From assembly GCA_963775465.1 (NCBI GenBank), contig CAVZIW010000003.1, forward strand, positions 32,001-96,000: a stretch of DNA of 64,000 bases. The letters are read 5' to 3'. The number at the start of each line of letters is the position of its first letter. The first letter of the stretch is position 1. The notes beneath the pieces were generated by a model. That model searched no databases, was not told where the DNA came from, and was given only the letters and a program-made list of their open reading frames with translations. The stretch comes from Candidatus Bathyarchaeota archaeon (lineage in GTDB: Archaea; Thermoproteota; Bathyarchaeia; Bathyarchaeales; Bathycorpusculaceae). Shown one piece after another: positions 13,601 to 27,291 of the stretch. The translations under genes and the position numbers were made by a program.

Positions 13601-14575
13601 TTAAACGACTAAGTCCGCCATATCCACACTTCGCTCGTAAATCTGCTTCAGAAAAGAAACCGCTGCTAGAAGCTGAGGCAACAAGTCCACCGATAAGTCC
13701 TTAGCAACTCGCTCAACGGTAGAAGAACTCGCCTCCACTTTGCCATATAAGTCTCGGACTTGTTCAGCTAAAGATATGTCTTTAACCAAGAAAGCCTTGA
13801 AAGCGTGTTCGTTAGCTTCACAACAAATCAATTGCAATTCAACAAGTGATTTCTTCACCTCATCAGATAATTTTATACCGTTGAGGGCCAAAGTATTTTG
13901 AGCTATTTGAACACAAGAATCCCCGATTCCTTCAATTAAACTTGCAGCTAAACGGTAATCTAGACATTCAATCGGAGTGATGTCAAGCTTATCGCTTAGC
14001 CGCGGGTTCTGAATTATTGTACGCAAGATTCTAACAAGTAAAAAATATAGCCTATTGCTTTCATTATCTCTGGCAACTACGCTTTTTGCAAGCTCCAGAT
14101 CGCCATTGATAAACGAGTTTGAAACATCCCTAATCATTCCCGTAACAAGTCCATAGTTCCGTTGCAATATTTTTCCCGGCAAAAACCCGAAAGGTAGTTG
14201 AGAGATACTTTGCAAGGAAATTTTTGATATTGTTTCTTCAACGATTTCTAAACCTGCGAGAGAAATAGCTGTTGATTTAATGATGTTCCTTGCGTTTGCG
14301 TCAATGCGGTCTTTAGCTTCGATATTTATGGTATCATAGCCAAGAAGGTAACGACCAACAATTTCACGACCCAGAAATGGACCAACACCTAAAGTGGCAA
14401 TTTTAAGTTGAGGTTCAGTATCGTATTTGGGGTCGACAAGAAGTTTGCCGTCGCTTGTGGTCTCTAAATTAACCAGTGACCCCTTCGCAAGATTGTTCTG
14501 TTTTGCCCAGTCACGAGGGAGGCAAACAAAGAAGGTTCCTGTTGGCGTTTGTTGAACTTTGCGAGATTCACCCAT
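13601..14575 (-). CDS. phoU: Phosphate uptake regulator (AbrB/MazE-like N-domain + PhoU)
   Basis: RKVQQT..TFFVCLPRDWA, YLLGYD.I, D.E.NRLYFLL.R, LIEGIGD. Confidence 0.88.
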   Translation of the reverse strand: MGESRKVQQTPTGTFFVCLPRDWAKQNNLAKGSLVNLETTSDGKLLVDPKYDTEPQLKIATLGVGPFLGREIVGRYLLGYDTINIEAKDRIDANARNIIKSTAISLAGLEIVEETISKISLQSISQLPFGFLPGKILQRNYGLVTGMIRDVSNSFINGDLELAKSVVARDNESNRLYFLLVRILRTIIQNPRLSDKLDITPIECLDYRLAASLIEGIGDSCVQIAQNTLALNGIKLSDEVKKSLVELQLICCEANEHAFKAFLVKDISLAEQVRDLYGKVEASSSTVERVAKDLSVDLLPQLLAAVSFLKQIYERSVDMADLVV

Positions 14576-14805: not shown

Positions 14806-16389
14806 ATGAGCTTAGAAAAACTTCAACAAGCAATAGAATCGATCATCATGGCGGGCTACCAAATAAATAGTGAAGCGTTTGAGTTCTTGTGCAAAAATTC
14901 TGAAAGCAATGATCCTGTCTGTATCGTAAGCCAGGCTTTGGAAAAAATCCAGGCGTTGCGGGAAAAACCAATGTTTATAGAAAAAGGCTTTCTAGAAACA
15001 CTTGTTCAAGCGCCAATTCTGGCGCCCCAAATGCAAGTTCCAGAACCGTCAGCTCAGAACAGATCACAGTCATATGTTCCTCAGCCTCAAATTCGACCTC
15101 TAGAAGAAATTCTAACAGGGAATCAAACCGAGTTTTATCCATATGCAAGAGACATCCCATCGGATCTGAAAATTCTCGATGATGCAACCAGAAAATTAAC
15201 CTCAAATGGCACGCTTGGCGAATATGTGCTATATTTCCAAGACCGCTTTAAGCGAATAGAGAGATTGTTAAGGCAAAGGATTGATGTAAAAGCAGCAACG
15301 CCTATTGCAGAAGCTTTAAAGTCACCACCGAAAACCAAGCTGAAAATCATTTGCATGTTGACTGAAAAACGTGACTCGAAAAACAACACTATTCTTTCAG
15401 TTGAGGATTTGCATGCAAGTGCAACCGTACTCGTGCCGCAGAAAGCCTCCGAAGACGTCAAAAAGAAAGCGTTAATGCTCCTACCAGATCAAGTTGTATG
15501 TATAGCCGTAGCAAAGACAAGGAGCAACTTGCTGATGGCAGAGGACATAATCTTTCCTGAAGTAGGAAAGAAACCACCTCAACGTGCCCAAGAACCCGTT
15601 TACGCCGTCTTCACATCTGACATTCATATTGGAAGTACAAAATTTACCAAAGAAGCTTTCAGGAGATTTATTCTTTGGTTAAGGGGGAAATATGGGTCAC
15701 TTGAGATGCGTGAAATTGCTAGTCGAGTCAAATACGTCCTAGTTGCAGGGGACATTGTGGACGGCGTGGGAATCTATCCTGACCAACAGAAAGAGCTAAC
15801 CATTCGTGATGTTCATAAACAGTACAATTACGCAATCAAATACCTAGAAAAAATACCTGAATATATAGAAATAGTGCTTTCACCAGGGAACCATGATGCA
15901 TCTCGGAAATCGCTGCCCCAACCCGCCATACCAGAAGGATATTTGGCTGCAATTCAAGGCAAAAAAAACTTTCATTCAGTCGGTAGCCCATGTTATCTTA
16001 GCGTGCATGGTGTTGACGTTCTCATGTACCATGGCAGAAGTCTAGATGATATTATTGCCGTAATCCCGGGTATGGATCATCAGCATCCAGAAAAGTCAAT
16101 GCGTTTACTTATGCGAGGAAGGCACTTGGCTCCCGTTTATGGAGGGAAAACGATGCTTTCTCCAGAAAACAGAGATTACTTGGTTATCGATAAGGTCCCA
16201 GACATATTCCATGCTGGACATGTGCATGTTAATGGATTATGTAATTATAGGGGGGTTCTCGTGGTCAACTCCGGAGGCTGGCAGGAACAAACTGATTATA
16301 TGGAAAAGTTGGGATTAGTTCCTACACCTGGCAAAGTGCCAGTTGTGAACCTGCAAACGATGGAAACGACAGTTATTTCATTTCTGTAA
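14806..16389 (+). CDS. polB: DNA polymerase D small subunit DP1
   Basis: YFQDRF, OB fold, SDIHIGS, AGDIVDGVGIYP, PGNHD, HGRSLDD, HLAP.YG, AGHVH. Confidence 0.96.
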   Translation: MSLEKLQQAIESIIMAGYQINSEAFEFLCKNSESNDPVCIVSQALEKIQALREKPMFIEKGFLETLVQAPILAPQMQVPEPSAQNRSQSYVPQPQIRPLEEILTGNQTEFYPYARDIPSDLKILDDATRKLTSNGTLGEYVLYFQDRFKRIERLLRQRIDVKAATPIAEALKSPPKTKLKIICMLTEKRDSKNNTILSVEDLHASATVLVPQKASEDVKKKALMLLPDQVVCIAVAKTRSNLLMAEDIIFPEVGKKPPQRAQEPVYAVFTSDIHIGSTKFTKEAFRRFILWLRGKYGSLEMREIASRVKYVLVAGDIVDGVGIYPDQQKELTIRDVHKQYNYAIKYLEKIPEYIEIVLSPGNHDASRKSLPQPAIPEGYLAAIQGKKNFHSVGSPCYLSVHGVDVLMYHGRSLDDIIAVIPGMDHQHPEKSMRLLMRGRHLAPVYGGKTMLSPENRDYLVIDKVPDIFHAGHVHVNGLCNYRGVLVVNSGGWQEQTDYMEKLGLVPTPGKVPVVNLQTMETTVISFL

Positions 16390-17610
16390 TTTATATGGAG
16401 TTTTGGGAGAATAGCTGAGCAATTGGTTAAAGCGGTTGTCGTCACCAAAGACGTCACGGATTAACCCCCGGGAAATTTCAAGGCGAATTTTTTTAGTTCT
16501 TCCGTATCTACCCATGCTTACGACTTTGGCGTTCACTAGCCCCATCGAGTCTAGCTCATTAACTAAGGTACCCAATCGTCTTTGAGTTAAAAGTCCTGCA
16601 CCCATCTCGCCACATAACTCATTGTAGACATCATAAATTTCACCAGTTGTGGCACTAGACTTGTTTAAGTGGTAAACACTCAAGACCACCAGTTTTGAAT
16701 GCAATGTCAAATTCTTTAACGCTTCCAGAACGCGATTGTGTTCAATGTGTTTCTCTGCTTGACGTACATGCTCTTCAGTAACTGACTTTGCATTCTCTCG
16801 TTCTGCCACTTCACCAGCTACACGCAGCAAATCCAATGCTCGTCTTGCATCGCCATGTTCTGCAGCTGCTAGGGCCGAAGAAATACTCAGGGCTGAATCA
16901 GATAAAACGCCCTCTTGGAAAGCTAGCCTTGAACGTTCGAGAAGGATATTACGAAGTTCACCTGCATCATAAGGTCTGAACACCAGCTCTTCTTCGCTAA
17001 GAGAGCTGAAGACTCTAGGGTCGAGAAACTCTTTGAGACGTAAATCGTTGGATATGCCAATTATCGAGACCTTGCTTTTGTTTAGTGTCTCATTTATTCT
17101 TGTAAGTTCGTACATGAAAGCATCTCCGCGTTCCTTGATTAAAGCATCAACTTCATCCAGAACTACTATAAAGATAATTCGAGATTGGTCAAGACATGAA
17201 CGGAACCGATCGAAGACTTCACCAACTGAGAGTCCTGTGAACGGTACTGCTAACCCCACACTTTGGCTTAAACTAGCAAAAACACGATATTCAGAACCAG
17301 TCATACGGCAGTTGATATAGCAGAATTTTATTTGTGCACCATATTCTTTGGCTTTGGATTCTAAATGGCTTAAAACATATTTTGCAACAGCTGTTTTTCC
17401 TGTTCCTGTCTTACCATATATGAATATGTTTGAACATCTAGCATTTTTTAAGACAGGTGCAACAGTTGCACCTAAGAGACGAATCTGATCTTCTCTGTGA
17501 GGCAGTTTTTCAGGAAGATAATCATGTCTGAGAACTTCGCGGTCTTTAAAGAGCTTAATACCATTAACAAAATTGTCGAATACATCATCTAATACGTTTG
17601 AATTCCCCAT
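16378..17610 (-). CDS. cdc6: Orc1/Cdc6 replication initiator
   Basis: YLPEKLPHRE, GKTGTGKT, VLDEVD, GISND, HGDARRALDLLR, GRYGRT wing; start 17610 or 17619. Confidence 0.97.
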   Translation of the reverse strand: MGNSNVLDDVFDNFVNGIKLFKDREVLRHDYLPEKLPHREDQIRLLGATVAPVLKNARCSNIFIYGKTGTGKTAVAKYVLSHLESKAKEYGAQIKFCYINCRMTGSEYRVFASLSQSVGLAVPFTGLSVGEVFDRFRSCLDQSRIIFIVVLDEVDALIKERGDAFMYELTRINETLNKSKVSIIGISNDLRLKEFLDPRVFSSLSEEELVFRPYDAGELRNILLERSRLAFQEGVLSDSALSISSALAAAEHGDARRALDLLRVAGEVAERENAKSVTEEHVRQAEKHIEHNRVLEALKNLTLHSKLVVLSVYHLNKSSATTGEIYDVYNELCGEMGAGLLTQRRLGTLVNELDSMGLVNAKVVSMGRYGRTKKIRLEISRGLIRDVFGDDNRFNQLLSYSPKTPYKLQK

Positions 17611-17636
17611 CTTACCCACCGCTTTTCTTCAGAGGT

Positions 17637-18222
17637 ACAACCGTTACTTCTTATGGAACAGATAAAGGATGTAGTACAAAAAACTGGTCTTAGAACACAA
17701 CAATCCTAAAAAAAATGAAAATACATCGGCAAAGACAAGTAAACAAAGGAAAAACACGCACCCCCAGGTTTCTATTGGAAAAAATGGATGCTATAAAGTT
17801 TAACACATTATTACTACTTATAATAATATACTCTGAGTTGTAAATACAAATTCTATATATTAATTATTGTTATCCAAGAAATTAAACTATTTTTCTTCAA
17901 ATATTTTTTTCTCTCTTTACAGTCTTCATTTTGCTCAAAATCCTCGAAAGGAAACGTAGGGGTGTCTCTTTAGAGCTTAATCCATCATAAAAAAATTAAA
18001 ATTGCTTATTGCATTGCTAGTCTATTCATACTCTTGTAATATCTTAATGTATGAACATCCAAGACACTTTTACGTGCAATTTTTCTTTTCTCTGCATTCA
18101 CAAAGCTGTGAATACATGTAAAATAATAATAAATTTGTCGCTTTAACAAGCCCCTTTTAGGATAATTTGTTTTAATTCTGTCTTTTAACAGTGAATAAGC
18201 CACCCCTACACTTCTACTGGAA
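17637..18222. other. Replication origin oriC with ORB elements and AT-rich unwinding region
   Basis: 22-mers TTCCAATAGAAACCTGGGGGTG (17759-17780, minus), CTCGAAAGGAAACGTAGGGGTG (17943-17964, plus), TTCCAGTAGAAGTGTAGGGGTG (18201-18222, minus) and a degenerate copy at 17637-17658 match the archaeal ORB pattern with G-string; directly upstream of cdc6. Confidence 0.85.
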
Positions 18223-18416
18223 AACCCAAACCAGGCACTAACTGAATTTATTTTACCATTTAATTATTATGTGAAGTTGGTAATCTCAAATACGCTCTAA
18301 AATTTAGGTATTTAATAATAAAAAGCTTTAATACAGGTTTTTTTCCTATCTGTTTTCACCATCACAGTTATATGAAGTGAAGCAATAAAGTTGTGAACAA
18401 CCTAGGTGTTCATCAA

Positions 18417-18848
18417 ATGCCGGCTCGGAAAATGCGCGTTGAGCTGTTCGATAGCGATGGGAATCGATATACCATAGCTTTTGAGGGTCAAGTAACCCGC
18501 GATAAAGCTCTGCGTCTTTTGGATCTTGTCGAATTGCTAGGCGGTACACCGAATGAAGGTCAAGTTGCAAATACAAATCCAAACATACCTAACCGTGTTT
18601 TATCTCGTTTGGAAAAGGTTAAGTCAGTCATTCAGAAGAACTTTCCATTAGTCTGGTTTTCGTCTAAGGATATTCAAACCGTTTATGAACAGGAACTTAA
18701 AGAGCCAGTTAGCCTGAGCACCATATCCACATACTTGTCCAGAATGACGACTAAGGGCTTACTAATGCGTACTGGTAACTCGAATAATCTCAAGTATAAA
18801 ACAGCTCCAAATATCCCTCAAACAACTTTAAAACAGCGAACGAAATAG
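18417..18848 (+). CDS. Uncharacterised protein with C-terminal winged HTH
   Basis: WFSSKDIQTVYEQELKEPVSLSTISTYLSRMTTKGLLMRTG....KY; ATG 18417 after AGGTG. Confidence 0.8.
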   Translation: MPARKMRVELFDSDGNRYTIAFEGQVTRDKALRLLDLVELLGGTPNEGQVANTNPNIPNRVLSRLEKVKSVIQKNFPLVWFSSKDIQTVYEQELKEPVSLSTISTYLSRMTTKGLLMRTGNSNNLKYKTAPNIPQTTLKQRTK

Positions 18849-18914
18849 TTTCAAAGCTACTTTATTTTTAATTCATAGAAATTAGTCTTATTAATCTCAA
18901 CCTTAACTTGAATT

Positions 18915-19691
18915 TCATGCAGTTTGGTTTTCGGTTTTCTGTAGAAGCGCTTCCATCTCTTTCTTGATGGTGTAGCGGAAAGGAATCTTTCCTGCTTCCC
19001 TCTCTAGATATCCTTCCTCATAGAGCTTTTTCATCAACCTAGCTGTATGTTCCCTGCTAAGACGTACTCTTTCTTTTATTTCGGGTGCCGTTTTCGCACC
19101 TTGTTTATGGAGCATTTCCAAAACTGTTATTTCGGTGTCAGTTAAGGCCGCTAACGCTTTATCTCGTTTTATTAGTAAGGGCGTTAACATGATTTCATTT
19201 TTATTTTCCTGCGGCGCTGGCGCAAAGGAAAGTTTCTGGATTTCCTCTTCAATTACTATTAATTTATTTCCCAAAGTTTCTTGGGTGGCTTCGATATCTT
19301 TAATTTTAGATTCTAATCCTCCCAATTCAGAGAGAAAGTTGGTGTTTTTTTGAGTGTTCTCTAAGAAGGTTTGCGACATCAATTCGATTGATTGACTGAG
19401 CGTACTGAGTTGTTGTTCAAAAGGCACTATTCTTTTTTCAAGGTTATCTGCCCTTCTGTAGCTAGCATCTGCAGTGGAGTAGCTTCCATCGACCTTGGAT
19501 GCCATCGATTCAAACCTGATAGATTCACGCTTTAGTTCACGGTCGAAGCTTAGTACTATATCTTCAACGAAGCCTCTAGCTTTTTCATATTCTATATGGG
19601 CCTTGCGTATTTGCTTATAGTACTCGAATGCAGCTAAAATTGTTACAGATAATAGAACACCAAAGACTATTATTGTGAAATCAACCGTGAT
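18915..19691 (-). CDS. N-terminally membrane-anchored coiled-coil protein with C-terminal MarR-like wHTH
   Basis: Frame open 62 codons upstream of ATG 19505 to ATC 19691 preceded by GGAGGAG; added N-terminus ITVDFTIIVFGVLLSVTILAAFEYYKQIRK is TM-like; C-terminus LTDTEITVLEML..GAKTAPEIKERVRLSREHTARLMKKLYEEGYLER. Confidence 0.8.
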   Translation of the reverse strand: MTVDFTIIVFGVLLSVTILAAFEYYKQIRKAHIEYEKARGFVEDIVLSFDRELKRESIRFESMASKVDGSYSTADASYRRADNLEKRIVPFEQQLSTLSQSIELMSQTFLENTQKNTNFLSELGGLESKIKDIEATQETLGNKLIVIEEEIQKLSFAPAPQENKNEIMLTPLLIKRDKALAALTDTEITVLEMLHKQGAKTAPEIKERVRLSREHTARLMKKLYEEGYLEREAGKIPFRYTIKKEMEALLQKTENQTA

Positions 19692-19983
19692 CTTCTCCTC
19701 CTTTGATGTATCCGTGACTCACACGTGATTTCCTCTGATTTAAGTTGTTGCATCACATATCACAGTATTTTCCATGGACTATTAAGTTTTATGGTGATCT
19801 TATCACATTATTAATATGACATCACACATCACAGTTCATTATTAACGATGCTTATCATGCTCGTGTATCTATAAATAGCCCTTATTTAGGCTTATTTTTA
19901 TAATTAGAACTTGAATATTGCGTTTAAGAGTATTTATATTTACTCCATGGAAATGCGAAAAAATATGTGATTTGTGACGTCAC
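19687..19983. repeat. GTGA/TCAC motif array 1
   Basis: 13 GTGA/TCAC tetramers; CATCACA(T/C)ATCACAGT at 19751-19766 and 19820-19835; palindromes GTGACTCAC, GTGATcttATCAC, GTGACGTCAC. Confidence 0.8.
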
Positions 19984-19994
19984 ACCTATCATTC

Positions 19995-20477
19995 TTAGGG
20001 GTTTGAAAGGCGTTTTAGGCTCGTTTCGAGCTCTATTCTGATGATTTCTATTACCTTTAGATGGTCTTTTAGTTCCTCTTCCTTACTAGGAATATCTTGG
20101 TGTGCCTCCACATATTCATGCAGTTTATTGGCTATTTCGAGGTAAGGGTCAAGAGTTGTTGTATCAAAAACACCCAAATAACCTAGAAGCAGTACTGTGT
20201 AAATGGACTTAATTACGTTTTCACGGGACTGTTTTAGGGTCCTATTAAAGGCGCCGCGGCTTATTTTAGCCTTTGTTAATCGTAAAGCAGCTTTTTCGTC
20301 GTACTTTAGCTGTTTCCCCGACAAATTTTCTGCTAAAACATCAATAAGAAGCGTTTCGAGCTGTGTTTTAGATAATTGGCTGTTTTTAGCCAAGATTTTG
20401 ACAATAGGGTCGTTTAAAGCGCCATTTAACCATGCTGTTACACTGTCTTTTAACTTCAAATTACTACTTATCTCCAT
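19995..20477 (-). CDS. Uncharacterised helical protein, probable HTH DNA-binding (Tfx-like pattern)
   Basis: LSKTQLETLL..YDEKAALR...ISRGAFNRTLKQSRENV resembles an HTH recognition helix; function inferred. Confidence 0.65.
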   Translation of the reverse strand: MEISSNLKLKDSVTAWLNGALNDPIVKILAKNSQLSKTQLETLLIDVLAENLSGKQLKYDEKAALRLTKAKISRGAFNRTLKQSRENVIKSIYTVLLLGYLGVFDTTTLDPYLEIANKLHEYVEAHQDIPSKEEELKDHLKVIEIIRIELETSLKRLSNP

Positions 20478-20836
20478 ATTATGAATGGATACAGTTTTGT
20501 ATACTAACTCCTGTTTTTAACCTTTATCCAACAATAAAAAGTACAATAGTTAATAATAAAACACCTAAAATTAAGATAAAATATAAAAACAAACCAATAG
20601 TTTGCCCAATTGCTGAGTTGGACGATGATTAGCTATATTTAACAAAAAATGGCTAAATCCTTGATTTATTATTCGAGCCAATAATTTAAAATTTAAATAA
20701 AAATGTACATTTATAATCAGCAGCCCTTTTTTTTAACATAGATTACGAAATTAAAACACACTTTTTTTAACGACAATCAAACGTCAAAGCATTAATTTCG
20801 ATCAAATACTTACCCGTGGTTACCTTGAAAGCCGTC

Positions 20837-20949
20837 GTGACGTCACTCCTCACAGCGAAATTACCGTGATTTTTGCATGAATCACTTGATATCACATAAC
20901 TGTGATCACCTTGTGATTTCGAACTCCACGGATTATCGCTTGTATGTGA
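20837..20949. repeat. GTGA/TCAC motif array 2
   Basis: 10 GTGA/TCAC tetramers in 113 bp, including GTGACGTCAC (20837-20846) and GTGATCAC (20902-20909). Confidence 0.8.
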
Positions 20950-20953
20950 CTTG

Positions 20954-21790
20954 TTAGAGTAATTCAGAATATTGCTTTAGTTTCTCGAAAAGTTCAGGTC
21001 GCAGATCTCGAAGGGTTGGAATAAATGCTTCAGCAGTCCTTAAATCAGCGTAATCCACTTCGCAGAGAACAAAGTCTTCCTCGTCATACTTTCCCTTTGC
21101 CAATACATCACCTGTTGGGCTTAGAAGACGACTTCCACCCCAGAATTGCAAGCCGTCCTCCACGCCAGATAGGTTAACGTAGGCAAGGTAAGCCGTATTC
21201 TCGAGTGCTCTGGCAGCGGTTAGTATTTCAAAATAGCTTCTGCGCACTGCCGGTGATGCGGAAATACAAACTAAGAGTTGCGCGCCCTTCAAACGGGATA
21301 GCCGAAACACTTCTGGAAAGAAAACATCGTAGCAAATCGTTAACCCGATATTGCCCAAGTCGGTTTGGAAGACAGCTGGTTCATGACCAGAACGAAAATA
21401 CCTCTTTTCTTCAAACACGCTATGGGTCGGCAGGTACATTTTGCGATATTTGCCGATTAAACCCCTGGGGCCAATTATAACGCTGGTGTTGTAGATGGTC
21501 GCTTTGGTATTCTCGCATAGCTCAGGCATCCCAAAAATTATGTGCATCTTTGTTTTCTTTGCTAAATTCTCAATCTGTTGGACTGATGATCCTGTAATTG
21601 GTTCTGCTAATTCGTAGACTTGATCGTGAAGTACGTATCCTGTTAGTGACATTTCAGGGAAGATCGCTAGGGCTGCTCCTTTTTGCTTAGCTCTTTTTGT
21701 TAGCTCCTCGATTTTCTGCAGATTAGCCGCTTTGTTTTCTCTTTTGCTGCTTATTTGACAGAGAGCAAGTTTGATTTTATCTTTCATCAA
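20954..21790 (-). CDS. Carbon-nitrogen hydrolase (nitrilase superfamily)
   Basis: FPEMSLTGY, KYRKMYL, ICYDVFFPE (Glu-Lys-Cys triad), ARALEN. Confidence 0.92.
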   Translation of the reverse strand: MMKDKIKLALCQISSKRENKAANLQKIEELTKRAKQKGAALAIFPEMSLTGYVLHDQVYELAEPITGSSVQQIENLAKKTKMHIIFGMPELCENTKATIYNTSVIIGPRGLIGKYRKMYLPTHSVFEEKRYFRSGHEPAVFQTDLGNIGLTICYDVFFPEVFRLSRLKGAQLLVCISASPAVRRSYFEILTAARALENTAYLAYVNLSGVEDGLQFWGGSRLLSPTGDVLAKGKYDEEDFVLCEVDYADLRTAEAFIPTLRDLRPELFEKLKQYSELL

Positions 21791-23874: not shown

Positions 23875-26800
23875 TTGAACATTAGCAACGGCTATAAAAA
23901 TTATATAGACACATTAGATGAACTACTAAAGGAATTATACACCATTAGCGACAGCACTCGATCCAGAGGACTTGATCCCGCCCTAAGAACTGAGTGTATA
24001 CGCGCTCAAGACATTGCAGACTTAGTCGAGGGTTTAGTTGGACCAAAACACGTCGCTCTTAGCATCCGCCAACACAGTTCGAAGATGCCCAGAGAAGAAG
24101 TTGCTTTTAAGGTTGCACAAGAAATTGCTCAAGGCAAATTCGCTCAAGGCGAGCAAGGGCAAGAACAATTAGCTGAACAAGCGATTAGAACTGCACTTGC
24201 AATTTTTACTGAAGGCTTAACTGCAGCACCAATTCAAGGTATCGCTCAAGTAAAAGTAAAAACAAACGCTGACAGAACTCGTTACCTAGCAGTATATTTC
24301 GCTGGTCCTATTCGTTCAGCAGGAGGCACTGACCAAGCCTTAACACTAGTCGTGGGGGATTATGTGCGACGTGAACTTAATCTTGATAAATATAAACCCA
24401 CCGAGGAAGAAGTCTCCCGCTTTATTGAGGAACTGCGTCTGTACGAACGCTCCGTTGGACGATTTCAATATCACATTCCGGATGAGGAGCTGAGAAAAGC
24501 GCTTAACCTAATTCCAGTTGAATGTACAGGTACTGAATCAGACCCGGTTGAAGTTTCCTCCTACAGAAATTTGGAAAGAGTTGAAACAAACCGTGTTAGG
24601 GGAGGCGCTCTAAGAGTTGTCAACGACGGAATTGTTGGGCGCGCCCAGAAAGTGTACGTAATCATTGAAAAGTTAGGTTTTCAAGGTTGGGAATGGCTAA
24701 AAAACTTCAAGAAGAAATCTGAAAAAAAATCCGGAGGGTTTATGGATGATGTTATTGCAGGTCGGCCAATTTTTGCTTTTCCATCTACTCGTGGTGGTTT
24801 CAGACTGAGATATGGTAGGTCAAGAAACACTGGGCTCTCGGCTGTAGGTATTCATCCTGCAACAATGTTGGTAGTTGAAAGGTTTCTTGCTGCTGGCACA
24901 CAAATGCGTTTGGAACTACCCGGTAAAGGCGGGGTTACGATGCCTGTAGATAGCATCGAGAAGCCCGTGGTTTTGCTCAAAGATGGTTCTGTAGTTCGGG
25001 TATCACTTCAAAATTATCCAGAAGTTAAAGGCAAAATTCAAAAAATACTCTTCTTGGGGGACATACTCATAGATTTTGGAGATTTCCTCTATTGCAACAA
25101 AACGCTTCAACCGTCTGGTTATGTTGAAGAATGGTGGGCAAAAGATCTCAAGAACGCAATTAACTCAAAATTTGAAGATAACATTAAAAAAGCTTCAGAT
25201 TTGTCTACTTTATCTATAGAGACTTTGGAGGCTTTCATATTTGATCCCTTCCAAAACAAGCCAACTGTAAAAGAGGCAATTGTTCTTAGTCAAAATTTGG
25301 GTGTTCCACTATCTCCTAACTGCACATTTTTCTGGACAAGTTTAACCAGTTCTAAGGAAGTTGAAGCGCTGCAAAAATGGCTGGCTTGCTGTGATGTCAC
25401 CGTTGAAAATGGAGTTGCTTCCAAAATAGCTGGTCCCGATAATAATGAAGTCGTCAAGGCGCTCCGAAAAATTTTAGCTCCACATAGAATCGTAGATGGA
25501 AAAGTGGTGTTATACGGTGAAGATGCTGCTGCCTTTGGGTTTACTCTTGGTTTTGGTACATCACGACTGACGCAACCTTTGCCAGCAGTTACGGTTTTAG
25601 AGGCACTGAATCTATTATCGGATGTTCAAATCAAGGATAAAGCGCCAACTTATGTGGGGGGACGCATGGGCAGACCCGAAAAAGCAAAACACCGCGAAAT
25701 GAAACCCCTAGTTCACGTCCTTTTTCCAGTCAGTTTGAAGGGCGGTTCTCACAGAGATTTGATGGAAGCTGCTCGGCAAGGACCAGTGTTTGTTGAATTA
25801 GCTAAACGTAAATGCCCAACCTGCAAAACTTATAGTCTAAAGATTCATTGTCCAAACTGTAACTGCGAAACTATGCCAGAGAAGAGTTGCCCGCGCTGCG
25901 GCAGAAGCGTAAAAGACGCAGGGTGCCCAATATGCAAAACCGATGGAGTCATGTATCATAAACAACCTGTAAATTTTAAGGAAATGTTGGAAACCGCCGC
26001 TAACGTTCTCGGTTGTCAGCTTCCCAAGATGTTGCGTGGTGTTAAGGGCTTAACTAATCAGGATAAGACTCCGGAAATTATCGAAAAAGGGATCCTAAGG
26101 GCAAAGCATGGTCTATCTGTTTATAAAGATGGAACTATACGTTTTGACGCAACCAACGCGCCCTTAACTCATATTTCACCAAGCGAGATTGGTGTCTCTA
26201 TAGAGAAAATGCATCAGATGGGCTATTTGTCAGACATTAATGGCTTGCCCTTAACTGATCTTATGCAAATTTGCGAATTAAAGATACAAGATGTTGTGAT
26301 ACCTTGGCGGGCAGGCGAATATTTTGTTCAGATAGCTAACTTCATCGATGATCTTTTGACTCGGGTCTACAAGCAACCAGCATTCTATAATGTAAAAGAT
26401 GCGTCGGACATGGTTGGGCAACTTATTTTCGGGTTAGCGCCTCATACCTGTGCTTGTATCTTAGGTCGAGTGGTTGGATTTACTGATCGTAATGTTATCT
26501 ATGCTCACCCAGTTTGGCATTCAGCCAAACGCAGAGATTGTGATGGTGATGAAGATGCAATAATGCTTGGTCTTGATACTCTCATCAACTTTTCTAGGGT
26601 CTATCTTCCAGCTCAAATTGGGGGAATCATGGATGCCCCAATCTTGCTCATTCCTTTCGTGAACACTAAGGAAGTACAGCGACAAGCTCACGACTTTGAC
26701 GTTAGCTCTAGTTATCCAATAGAGTTCTACCACAAGACTTTGGAAAGGTATGATGCTCGACCAGCTAGCGCCCTTATGGATGTTGTCGGCCATCGATTAG

Positions 26801-27291
26801 GTACTGAAGCACAGTTTGAAGGCTTTCAATATACCACGCCATGCACTAACATCAATTTGGGAAACGCCAACAGTTCCTACAAGGAATTCAAATCTATGAT
26901 TGACAAGCTAGATATGCAGTTGGCGTTAGGAGAAAAAATCGATGCGGTTGATGCTAGGCGTGTTGCTCTTAAGGTTCTTAATACGCATTTCATGCGTGAT
27001 ATTGCAGGTAACATGCGAGCCTTTTCAACACAGGGATTTCGCTGCAAATCATGTAACAAGAAATTTCGTCGTTTACCCCTTAAAGGAAAATGTCCTTTTT
27101 GCGGTGGAAACTTGACGCTTACGGTATATCGTGGAGGTATCGAGAAGTATCTTGTTGCTGCCCAGCAACTTGTTGATAAATATGGTTTACCCAAGTATTA
27201 CACGCAACGAATGGATTTGATTAAAGAAGAGATTGCAGCTATGTTTGATAATAAGAAACCCAAACAATCAACCCTTTTTGACTTTAAGTAG
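23875..27291 (+). CDS. polC: DNA polymerase D large subunit DP2
   Basis: AGPIRSAGGT, GGFRLRYGRSRNTG, GRMGRPEKAK, AKRRDCDGDED catalytic motif, C-terminal Zn finger and PIP-like QSTLFDF; no intein. Confidence 0.98.
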   Translation: MNISNGYKNYIDTLDELLKELYTISDSTRSRGLDPALRTECIRAQDIADLVEGLVGPKHVALSIRQHSSKMPREEVAFKVAQEIAQGKFAQGEQGQEQLAEQAIRTALAIFTEGLTAAPIQGIAQVKVKTNADRTRYLAVYFAGPIRSAGGTDQALTLVVGDYVRRELNLDKYKPTEEEVSRFIEELRLYERSVGRFQYHIPDEELRKALNLIPVECTGTESDPVEVSSYRNLERVETNRVRGGALRVVNDGIVGRAQKVYVIIEKLGFQGWEWLKNFKKKSEKKSGGFMDDVIAGRPIFAFPSTRGGFRLRYGRSRNTGLSAVGIHPATMLVVERFLAAGTQMRLELPGKGGVTMPVDSIEKPVVLLKDGSVVRVSLQNYPEVKGKIQKILFLGDILIDFGDFLYCNKTLQPSGYVEEWWAKDLKNAINSKFEDNIKKASDLSTLSIETLEAFIFDPFQNKPTVKEAIVLSQNLGVPLSPNCTFFWTSLTSSKEVEALQKWLACCDVTVENGVASKIAGPDNNEVVKALRKILAPHRIVDGKVVLYGEDAAAFGFTLGFGTSRLTQPLPAVTVLEALNLLSDVQIKDKAPTYVGGRMGRPEKAKHREMKPLVHVLFPVSLKGGSHRDLMEAARQGPVFVELAKRKCPTCKTYSLKIHCPNCNCETMPEKSCPRCGRSVKDAGCPICKTDGVMYHKQPVNFKEMLETAANVLGCQLPKMLRGVKGLTNQDKTPEIIEKGILRAKHGLSVYKDGTIRFDATNAPLTHISPSEIGVSIEKMHQMGYLSDINGLPLTDLMQICELKIQDVVIPWRAGEYFVQIANFIDDLLTRVYKQPAFYNVKDASDMVGQLIFGLAPHTCACILGRVVGFTDRNVIYAHPVWHSAKRRDCDGDEDAIMLGLDTLINFSRVYLPAQIGGIMDAPILLIPFVNTKEVQRQAHDFDVSSSYPIEFYHKTLERYDARPASALMDVVGHRLGTEAQFEGFQYTTPCTNINLGNANSSYKEFKSMIDKLDMQLALGEKIDAVDARRVALKVLNTHFMRDIAGNMRAFSTQGFRCKSCNKKFRRLPLKGKCPFCGGNLTLTVYRGGIEKYLVAAQQLVDKYGLPKYYTQRMDLIKEEIAAMFDNKKPKQSTLFDFK

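Follow-up and report, generated by a model that had tools for sequence, protein, structure and literature searches.

How does an archaeon keep hold of its replication origin, and could a dedicated apparatus be encoded beside it? For Bathyarchaeia and Thaumarchaeota, which rank with the commonest archaea of sediments, soils and oceans, we know of no account of how the single origin is positioned, segregated or timed. The question is raised by a locus in the genome of a Candidatus Bathyarchaeota archaeon (2,417,524 bases in 15 contigs). It lies in a stretch of 64,000 nucleotides, C3:32001-96000, which is called the window below and whose numbering is used throughout. Three uncharacterised genes of DNA-binding type, named g1, g2 and g3 here, stand directly beside an Orc1/Cdc6 initiator gene and a spacer with repeats resembling origin recognition boxes (ORBs), and are surrounded by arrays of GTGA/TCAC half-sites. 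The anatomy of this cassette, the uniqueness of its sites in the genome and its conservation across the order and beyond make the feature real and highly non-random. On the sequence evidence, the cassette is a good candidate for holding or controlling the origin.

Arrays of half-sites around the three genes

The initial annotation of this DNA had reported 13 half-sites in 19687-19983, 10 in 20837-20949 and a mini-cluster at g1. A recount returned exactly 13 and 10, and four half-sites in 18350-18400. The background is 5.3 per kilobase (kb) in the window and 5.2 per kb in the genome (12,590 half-sites). Only two windows of 120 base pairs (bp) with at least seven half-sites exist in the 2,417,524 bases, and they are the two arrays (Table 1). 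Longer words point to the same place. All three genome copies of TCACANATCACA are in the spacer between g2 and g3, and both copies of GTGACGTCAC and of TCACANNNNTGTGA (18098 in oriC; 20892) are at the cassette. In 100 shuffles of the window, 0.00 copies of TCACANATCACA and 0.03 of GTGACGTCAC were expected. CATCACAGT, the short word of the initial annotation, proved unspecific, as the cassette holds 2 of its 17 genome copies.

Three other places in the genome are dense in RTCACA (C1:320018, C1:320449 and C1:22063). They were considered as further arrays and rejected, being a coding tandem repeat and a chance cluster within an open frame of about 812 amino acids. The tandem repeat (C1:320000-320620) has a unit of 36 bp in about 17 copies, lies in a long open frame and contains GTCACA. 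It encodes a Ser/Pro-rich repeat, SPSPSPSVTP-like on one strand.

The half-sites follow a strict grammar. Half-sites of the same orientation are spaced by 7 bp in 105 of 241 cases and by 10-12 bp in 81, and facing half-sites (GTGA..TCAC) are 6 bp apart in 56 of 114. From 66 composites the consensus T-GTGA-YR-TCAC-AAA-TCAC-A was obtained. The composite GTGAnnTCACnnnTCAC, of 17 bp, has eight matches in five whole genomes, all at this locus, and its reversed control has one. For the order, about 16 kb around each of 40 g2 matches was collected, 622,289 bases in all. GTGAnnTCACnnnTCAC or its mirror occurs in the cassette zone of 39 of these 40 loci and nowhere else in the bases fetched, and clusters of at least five half-sites are found only around oriC, g1, g2 and g3. 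Genome-wide, the arrays are confined to this locus, and the even spread that the initial annotation had named as refuting was not seen.

Across 25 sequences of the genus, the footprints of array 1 are kept, and array 2 is likewise conserved in the genus. Site C of array 1 and GTGACGTCACTCCTCACA of array 2 form an inverted repeat (I6), 853 nucleotides apart on opposite sides of g3. In four sequencing runs kept as contigs, no read joints pointing to an inversion of the g3 segment were found. A further palindrome, GGATACAGTTTTGTATAC, lies between a TATA-like box and the start codon of g3. It is strongly kept in the genus and recurs across families of Bathyarchaeia, with similar palindromes upstream of g3 in the loci L045 and L095. 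Its sequence is unlike that of the GTGA arrays, and we infer a separate operator-like element in the promoter of g3. The initial picture of arrays beside these genes thus stands, and that of a single class of site does not: by sequence, at least three classes are present. One of them is found inside oriC and at the g1 promoter, and g3 has a unique promoter palindrome of its own. The stretch 20400-20836, upstream of g3, has 24-27% GC, no long open reading frame and no Rfam match, and contains two moderately conserved blocks at about 20650-20665 and 20692-20712. Rfam gave no match at E<=1 in 17500-21100.

Could the arrays simply be operators? A self-contained transcription-factor circuit, in which g1, g2 and g3 would use the arrays to repress or activate one another and possibly cdc6, could explain several of these features. 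Its output would be cell-cycle or stress-dependent expression, and the place beside oriC would then reflect gene dosage or inherited synteny only. The 5' ends of both g1 (18355-18398) and g2 (19687-19728) are overlapped by sites, a conserved TATA-like element stands between sites A and B, the putative promoter of g3 carries a palindrome of its own, and the winged helices of g1 and g2 are of types common in repressors. However, the composites have no other target in the five genomes, so that a pure regulator would regulate only itself. Sites also lie inside oriC between the ORBs, site C adjoins g3 at its 3' end, the total of about 25 half-sites, all within 3 kb of oriC, far exceeds the needs of an operator, and the membrane anchor of g2, which carries no sensor domain, would stay unexplained.

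A further objection to a mere circuit comes from a neighbouring gene. In nine loci, g3 and the hydrolase gene are separated by a gene for an aminotransferase of class I/II type, and in seven of them GTGAnnTCACnnnTCAC lies within its reading frame. The position is the same in relative terms, about 470 bases inside the frame and over the peptide V-T-S-L-I-T-E-K-S-R-V. A predicted binding site thus appears to be kept inside a coding sequence, which is hard to reconcile with a promoter-operator role. The converse idea, that array 2 is a relic of the aminotransferase gene, was tried and is unsupported: three aminotransferases searched by tblastn against the spacers upstream of g3 gave only matches with E>=0.17, and the short look-alike stretches are encoded by the motif itself. 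All in all, such a circuit is the main rival of the view taken below and is held to be only a little less probable.

Table 1. Features of the cassette, its sites and its surroundings. Positions are those of the window unless a locus is named.
Feature	Position	Strand	Basis or remark
PhoU-domain protein	13601-14575	-	Pfam
PolD small subunit (DP1)	14806-16389	+	Pfam
Orc1/Cdc6 initiator gene	16378-17619	-	Pfam Cdc6_C 3.2e-24, Cdc6_lid 8.9e-24, AAA
oriC-type spacer, 773 bp	17620-18392		ORB-like repeats and low GC
Palindrome TTCACA-N4-TGTGAA, between second and third ORB	18097-18112		unique in genome
Site cluster at g1 promoter and 5' end: TTCACCATCACAGT, GTGAAG, GTGAAC	18355-18398		4 half-sites
g1, 143 amino acids	18417-18848	+	open reading frame
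g2, 258 amino acids	18915-19691	-	open reading frame
Array 1, g3-g2 spacer	19687-19984		13 half-sites; repeats D14, I6
Array 1, proximal GTGA repeats	19687-19728		run into first codons of g2
Array 1, site A CATCACATATCACAGT	19751-19766		genus footprint
Array 1, site B	19820-19835		genus footprint
Array 1, site C TGTGATTTGTGACGTCACA	19966-19984		genus footprint; at g3 3' end
g3, 160 amino acids	19995-20477	-	open reading frame
Palindrome GGATAC-AGTTTT-GTATAC (GGATACAGTTTTGTATAC), between TATA-like box and g3 start codon	20487-20504		unique in genome
Array 2, composite GTGACGTCACTCCTCACA	20837-20854		mirror image of site C
Array 2, TCACATAACTGTGA among GTGAT/ATCACA sites	20892-20905		array spans 20837-20949, 10 half-sites
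PolD large subunit (DP2)	23875-27291		Pfam
NurA/HerA-like pair of relatives	L045:5397-7977; L037:5467-8011; also L040, L048, L054		open frames checked in 5, pair in 5/5
GTGAnnTCACnnnTCAC in aminotransferase frame	L045:9948, L047:10012, L048:10078, L050:10042, L052:10095, L053:10180, L056:4685		numbered with g2 set on the minus strand

The putative origin spacer and the conservation of the locus

The spacer between cdc6 and g1 has the look of an archaeal oriC next to Orc1/Cdc6, with an initiator gene and an AT-rich stretch flanked by inverted ORB repeats. The GC profile falls to 24-31% at 17700-18300. Three ORB-like repeats with G-strings are present at about 17757-17786 (minus), 17941-17966 (plus) and 18199-18226 (minus), called by eye against the ORB consensus. 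They are kept in the 25 genus sequences and visible in all seven loci of other families inspected. The genome has a second Orc1/Cdc6 paralogue at C6:79931-81031, which is 30% identical to the copy in the window.

Inside this spacer, sites of the half-site type recur. All 24 genus loci have the form TCACA-N4-TGTGA between Cdc6 and g1, the N4 being variable, whereas it was found in none of 12 loci of other families. In the other families inspected, direct GTGAA repeats stand in its place within oriC and at the promoter of g1. The site cluster at the g1 promoter is kept across the genus. GTTAAC hexamers were seen as well: many of them occur in the origin spacer of a Nitrosopumilaceae genome (L113:9650-10145), and they also stand beside GTGAA repeats in the Cdc6-g1 spacers of several families of Bathyarchaeia (L051, L058, L060). 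By their recurrence, they may be a further conserved origin element.

Such sites could also serve the control of initiation without any part in segregation. The proteins would then act at oriC and block or license Orc1/Cdc6, or unwinding, by sequestration or titration, like SeqA and datA of E. coli. In favor of this, the AT-rich region has a unique palindrome with inverted ORBs on either side, GTGAA repeats are present in the oriC of all families inspected, and the linkage to cdc6 is tight. A precedent is given by haloarchaea, where an archaeal origin is described as negatively controlled by a neighbouring cluster of initiator sites (PMC4010727). Nevertheless, the majority of half-sites surround g2 and g3, at 1.3-2.8 kb from the unwinding region and not in oriC, and nothing here ties g1-g3 to Orc1/Cdc6. 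This explanation overlaps with a tethering of the origin to the membrane, and sequence cannot separate the two. Taken as initiation control alone, it is unlikely.

The gene order around the spacer is well kept. The initial annotation had made synteny beside cdc6 a test of its idea, and in the order sample the succession Cdc6, oriC, g1, g2, g3 was indeed found in 36 of 40 loci, the other four being cut by contig ends. g3 is present in all 40 loci and g1 in 39. Orthologous loci have the arrays too: the g2-g3 spacer holds 6-17 half-sites in 147-532 bp in each of the 40. Of the refuting outcomes named in the initial annotation, those open to computation were thus not seen. Among 61 related genomes, g2 was found in 54; when the set is narrowed to the 43 with a completeness of 90% or more and a contamination of 5% or less, it was found in 40. 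No g2 was found in the families f14, f17, f41 and f43. Three near-complete genomes of f13 gave no g1 match, although g2, g3 and strong arrays are kept there.

The synteny extends to other classes, including Nitrosopumilaceae. Outside the order, Cdc6 lies within 6.5 kb in at least 19 of 38 g3 loci, and two more cases were seen separately. In family f18, whose proteins are named Nitrosopumilus or Nitrosopumilaceae "hypothetical protein" in the source records, all four loci show DP1, Cdc6, g1, g2, arrays, g3, PcrB and DP2 in this order. In the window, g1-g2-g3 are part of the same replication island, between oriC/cdc6 and the remainder of the island; genes for a C-N hydrolase, an NAD synthase, an Elf1-like protein and PcrB lie between g3 and the large subunit of PolD. 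No publication describing the cassette genes or the arrays was found, and supplementary gene-neighbourhood tables could mention them.

The flanking genes (C-N hydrolase, NAD synthase, aminotransferase, NurA/HerA) vary between loci. In 11 of 39 order loci, as judged by gap size, a NurA-like and a HerA-like gene (FtsK-HerA superfamily) are inserted between g1 and g2. Pfam was run on two of these loci: L045 gave NurA at 28.1 bits (cut-off 21) and DUF87/HerA at E 5e-13, and L037 the HerA match only. The pair was not found in this genome (tblastn at 1e-5) or in loci outside the order; it is therefore regarded as an optional insert and not as a core part. A PADLOC scan returned weak domain-level matches only, to HerA for the ATPase of the relatives and to CARF-associated helix-turn-helix (HTH) models for the winged helix of g2.

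Direct repeats at about 11-bp phasing beside a small winged-helix gene also call iterons to mind. The genes would then be remnants of an integrated plasmid or virus replicon captured beside cdc6, and archaeal origins are thought to stem partly from captured extrachromosomal elements (PMC4010727). This origin is highly improbable for the cassette. The position of the genes is the same in all 40 order loci and is shared by other classes. Nothing stands out as an integrase, a tRNA target or a break in composition, nearly all genomes have one copy of g2, and PADLOC gave only the weak domain-level matches. In this genome, tblastn found g1, g2 and g3 once each.

The three proteins as candidate readers

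For g2, the initial annotation had described a transmembrane segment, a coiled coil and a MarR-like winged helix, and this description is borne out. In an alignment of 39 sequences, the membrane helix at the N-terminus is succeeded by a juxtamembrane segment that is conserved, then by the heptad-rich coiled coil and, at the C-terminus, by the winged helix. Residues 1-25 reach a 19-residue Kyte-Doolittle mean of up to 2.37 and are followed by basic residues, and g2 has no extracellular domain. The MarR family (PF01047) is matched at residues 186-236 with 34.1 bits against a cut-off of 24.6; the winged helix also resembles Lrs14 and Sta1, both below the Pfam cut-off. Across the 39 sequences, the coiled coil varies in sequence and length and is always kept, and the winged helix is almost invariant. 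Regulators of the MarR/Lrs14 type are small soluble dimers of about 140-170 amino acids, with N- and C-terminal helices as dimer interface. In contrast, g2 has 258 residues, its MarR-type part is the C-terminal 60, the dimerisation helices of MarR are missing, and the protein is extended by a membrane helix and by about 130 residues of coiled coil.

The start of g2 is peculiar. Most genus members have no ATG, GTG or TTG before the membrane helix and show a conserved ATH (Ile) codon instead, within K-I-T-V-D at the start of the open frame (window 19620-19700) and overlapping a GTGAT half-site; in other families, an ATG stands there. Judging by these codons, initiation of g2 may be non-canonical in the genus. 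As for RNA, a 323-base contig spanning 19344-19666, within g2, in one metatranscriptome library is a weak hint only. The remaining parts have no RNA cover, which proves nothing.

The membrane helix of g2 could also be a switch and not a tether. g2 would then be a membrane-sequestered transcription factor freed by regulated proteolysis, as occurs in other membrane-bound regulators. The single N-terminal helix with only a few residues outside and the conserved juxtamembrane segment behind it would suit such a release. On the other hand, the conserved cassette contains no protease gene and there are no targets outside the locus. Moreover, a long coiled coil that varies and is always kept suits a spacer arm better than a cleavable linker. 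Proteolytic release is thus rated as improbable, and a tethering function of the helix is retained below.

For g1, the earlier assignment as a winged HTH protein was upheld by structure prediction. AlphaFold2 (pLDDT 73.3) places a beta-beta-alpha module, which is conserved, at the N-terminus and a winged helix at the C-terminus, joined by a disordered linker. The best Foldseek matches are the DNA-binding domains of Fur, RosR, MecI and BlaI, to which the likeness is only generic, at E 5e-3 and weaker, and Penicillinase_R is matched below threshold in 36 of 39 orthologues.

In contrast to g1 and g2, g3 did not keep its earlier label of an HTH-like protein. The AlphaFold2 model is all-helical, with seven helices (pLDDT 76.9). 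Foldseek against the PDB gave nothing at E<=0.001 (best E 0.66), and the PDB sequence profile search had a best E of 0.25. No Pfam family was found, with chance-level matches in 39 members and nothing informative in 10 distant or long ones. Hints of an HTH like that of sigma-70 region 4 are weak: DUF134 appears in 2 of 39 members (best E 0.032), and an Atlas cluster with Sigma70_r4 in 14% of its members has a score of only 0.79. A Sigma-70 region 4/DUF134-like HTH is a lead only, and no HTH family or fold was matched significantly. A complex prediction of g2 (residues 25-258) with g3 scored 0.00, without control runs, and speaks neither for nor against a complex.

The g3 family is widespread all the same. 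A profile search found it in 146 of 301 sampled genomes of the phylum. Among 8000 candidates scored, 4078 proteins reached E<=1e-5, and 320 representatives at 50% identity were obtained at E<=1e-3. The best 120 matches, where named, are called "hypothetical protein", with a single MazG-like exception. One member, P0256, is a protein of 362 amino acids in which the g3 core is joined to a hydrophobic membrane helix and a coiled coil. It was considered as a g3-g2 fusion and rejected, because its profile showed no likeness to that of g2 (hhalign probability 0.5%). Either an artefact of gene calling or a fused form in its own right may be at hand.

A possible hold on the origin

How could these parts work together? 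The arrays would be binding sites of the DNA-binding proteins of the cassette itself. g2 would be the likeliest reader of the GTGA(Y) arrays, as a coiled-coil dimer whose N-terminal helix anchors it in the membrane and whose MarR-type winged helix lies in the cytoplasm. g1 would most likely read the GTGAA-type repeats in oriC and at its own promoter. g3, presumably controlled through its promoter palindrome, would act as a partner or third binder. With g2 on its half-sites close to oriC, origin-proximal DNA would be kept at the membrane, which could serve segregation, sequestration or initiation control. g1 would act within oriC, and the sites over the 5' ends of g1 and g2 would bring autoregulation as a side effect, as in par operons. 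We hold this view tentatively, at somewhat less than even confidence. The restriction of the sites to the locus, their grammar, the deep linkage to cdc6, the sites inside oriC and those away from promoters speak for it, as do the strongly hydrophobic helix of g2 and its recognition helix, SREHT[AS]RLMKKL. Bathyarchaeia and Nitrosopumilaceae, which both carry GTGA arrays, share this recognition helix almost unchanged, and lineages with REH[VIL]SR mostly lack TCAC enrichment.

Several observations weigh against a membrane tether read in this way. The families f30, f40 and f49 are exceptions to the link between recognition helix and arrays, and related genomes do not count as independent samples. 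Over 78 loci, TCAC density sorts cleanly with neither g1 nor g2: it is not raised in f22, f29, f31, f40, f44 and f49, which have g2, and it is moderately raised in f17, which does not. Hence, a site-to-protein assignment cannot be made from presence and absence. Pairs of g2-g3 or g1-g3 at a distance from cdc6 are what f20, f26, f31, f41 and f43 show. In four complete genomes of Nitrosopumilaceae, a spaced GTGA pattern and its reversed control were matched equally often, and the pattern did not pick out the locus. Because the whole DP1...DP2 island is syntenic, part of the linkage to cdc6 may be inherited gene order. No motor ATPase is encoded at the cassette, and the NurA/HerA-like pair of the relatives was not found in this genome. 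Finally, simple autoregulation would seem to explain part of the pattern, as sites stand at the 5' ends of g1 and g2, where operators would sit.

By analogy, the closest logic would be that of RacA/ram in Bacillus subtilis and RicO/ricS in Staphylococcus aureus, and not that of ParABS or SegAB. RacA is an HTH protein with a coiled-coil arm that binds about 25 origin-proximal ram sites and fixes the origin region at the cell envelope. It differs from g2 in being soluble, in reaching the membrane via DivIVA and in its N-terminal HTH of another type. The ram sites are spread over hundreds of kilobases, whereas those described here lie within 3 kb and flank the genes. RicO/ricS is described as needing no dedicated ATPase, and RicO as a bacterial protein with an N-terminal DNA-binding domain and a C-terminal amphipathic helix (bioRxiv 10.64898/2026.03.06.710092). 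g2 is built the other way round, with a transmembrane helix at the N-terminus, a long coiled coil and the MarR-type winged helix at the C-terminus, and no sequence relation is expected. Membrane-anchoring origin binders of the RacA and RicO type are a functional class and not a homologous family, and only parts of it are seen here, namely a membrane helix and a winged helix in g2, and the arrays.

ParABS and SegAB systems have iterated sites beside the operon of their own binding protein, are autoregulated and are origin-proximal in many bacteria. The cassette shares with them iterated specific sites that adjoin its genes (18355-18398, 19687-19984, 20837-20949) and are unique in the genome. 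Unlike these systems, it has no Walker-type ATPase of the ParA/SegA kind, neither in the window nor between Cdc6 and the C-N hydrolase. The initial annotation had made the same point, and it agrees with the genome-wide search: all six matches to CbiA (PF01656) are outside the window, the nearest at C3:135185. Some relatives do have an ATPase at this spot, the HerA-like one, but its superfamily is not that of ParA/SegA. Furthermore, Pfam recognises no ParB-type, CTPase or SegB-type ribbon-helix-helix domain in g1-g3.

Within archaea, WhiP/oriC3 and the Orc1/Cdc6-ORB pairs are comparable, as a winged-helix protein is encoded beside an origin with its own repeats (PMC4010727). g1 differs from both WhiP and Orc1/Cdc6 in having a single small winged helix and a novel N-terminal module, and it is neither Cdt1-like nor AAA+. 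The locus already has its normal Orc1/Cdc6 and ORBs, and the part of g1 would be that of an accessory factor and not of the initiator. In kind, origin-side site arrays with dedicated binders are known, and the candidate binders at this locus are unrelated, largely uncharacterised proteins.

Extended beyond this genome, the same idea would describe an unrecognised, centromere-like system of origin anchoring that reaches from Bathyarchaeia to the ammonia-oxidising Nitrosopumilaceae, in which g2 with g1 and g3 on the arrays within and next to oriC would fix newly replicated origins to the membrane. This wider claim is possible and is put forward with clear doubt. If true, the system would do the job of RacA/ram or RicO/ricS in lineages without SegAB or ParABS at the origin. 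A defined cassette of three genes, exact sites with a clear grammar and homologues in cultivable Nitrosopumilus make the question directly testable. Even if the cassette is only a regulatory circuit, g3 represents a widespread family without known fold or function, and the arrays are a rare example of cis-elements whose place is conserved from class to class, even where it falls within the coding sequence of a neighbour.

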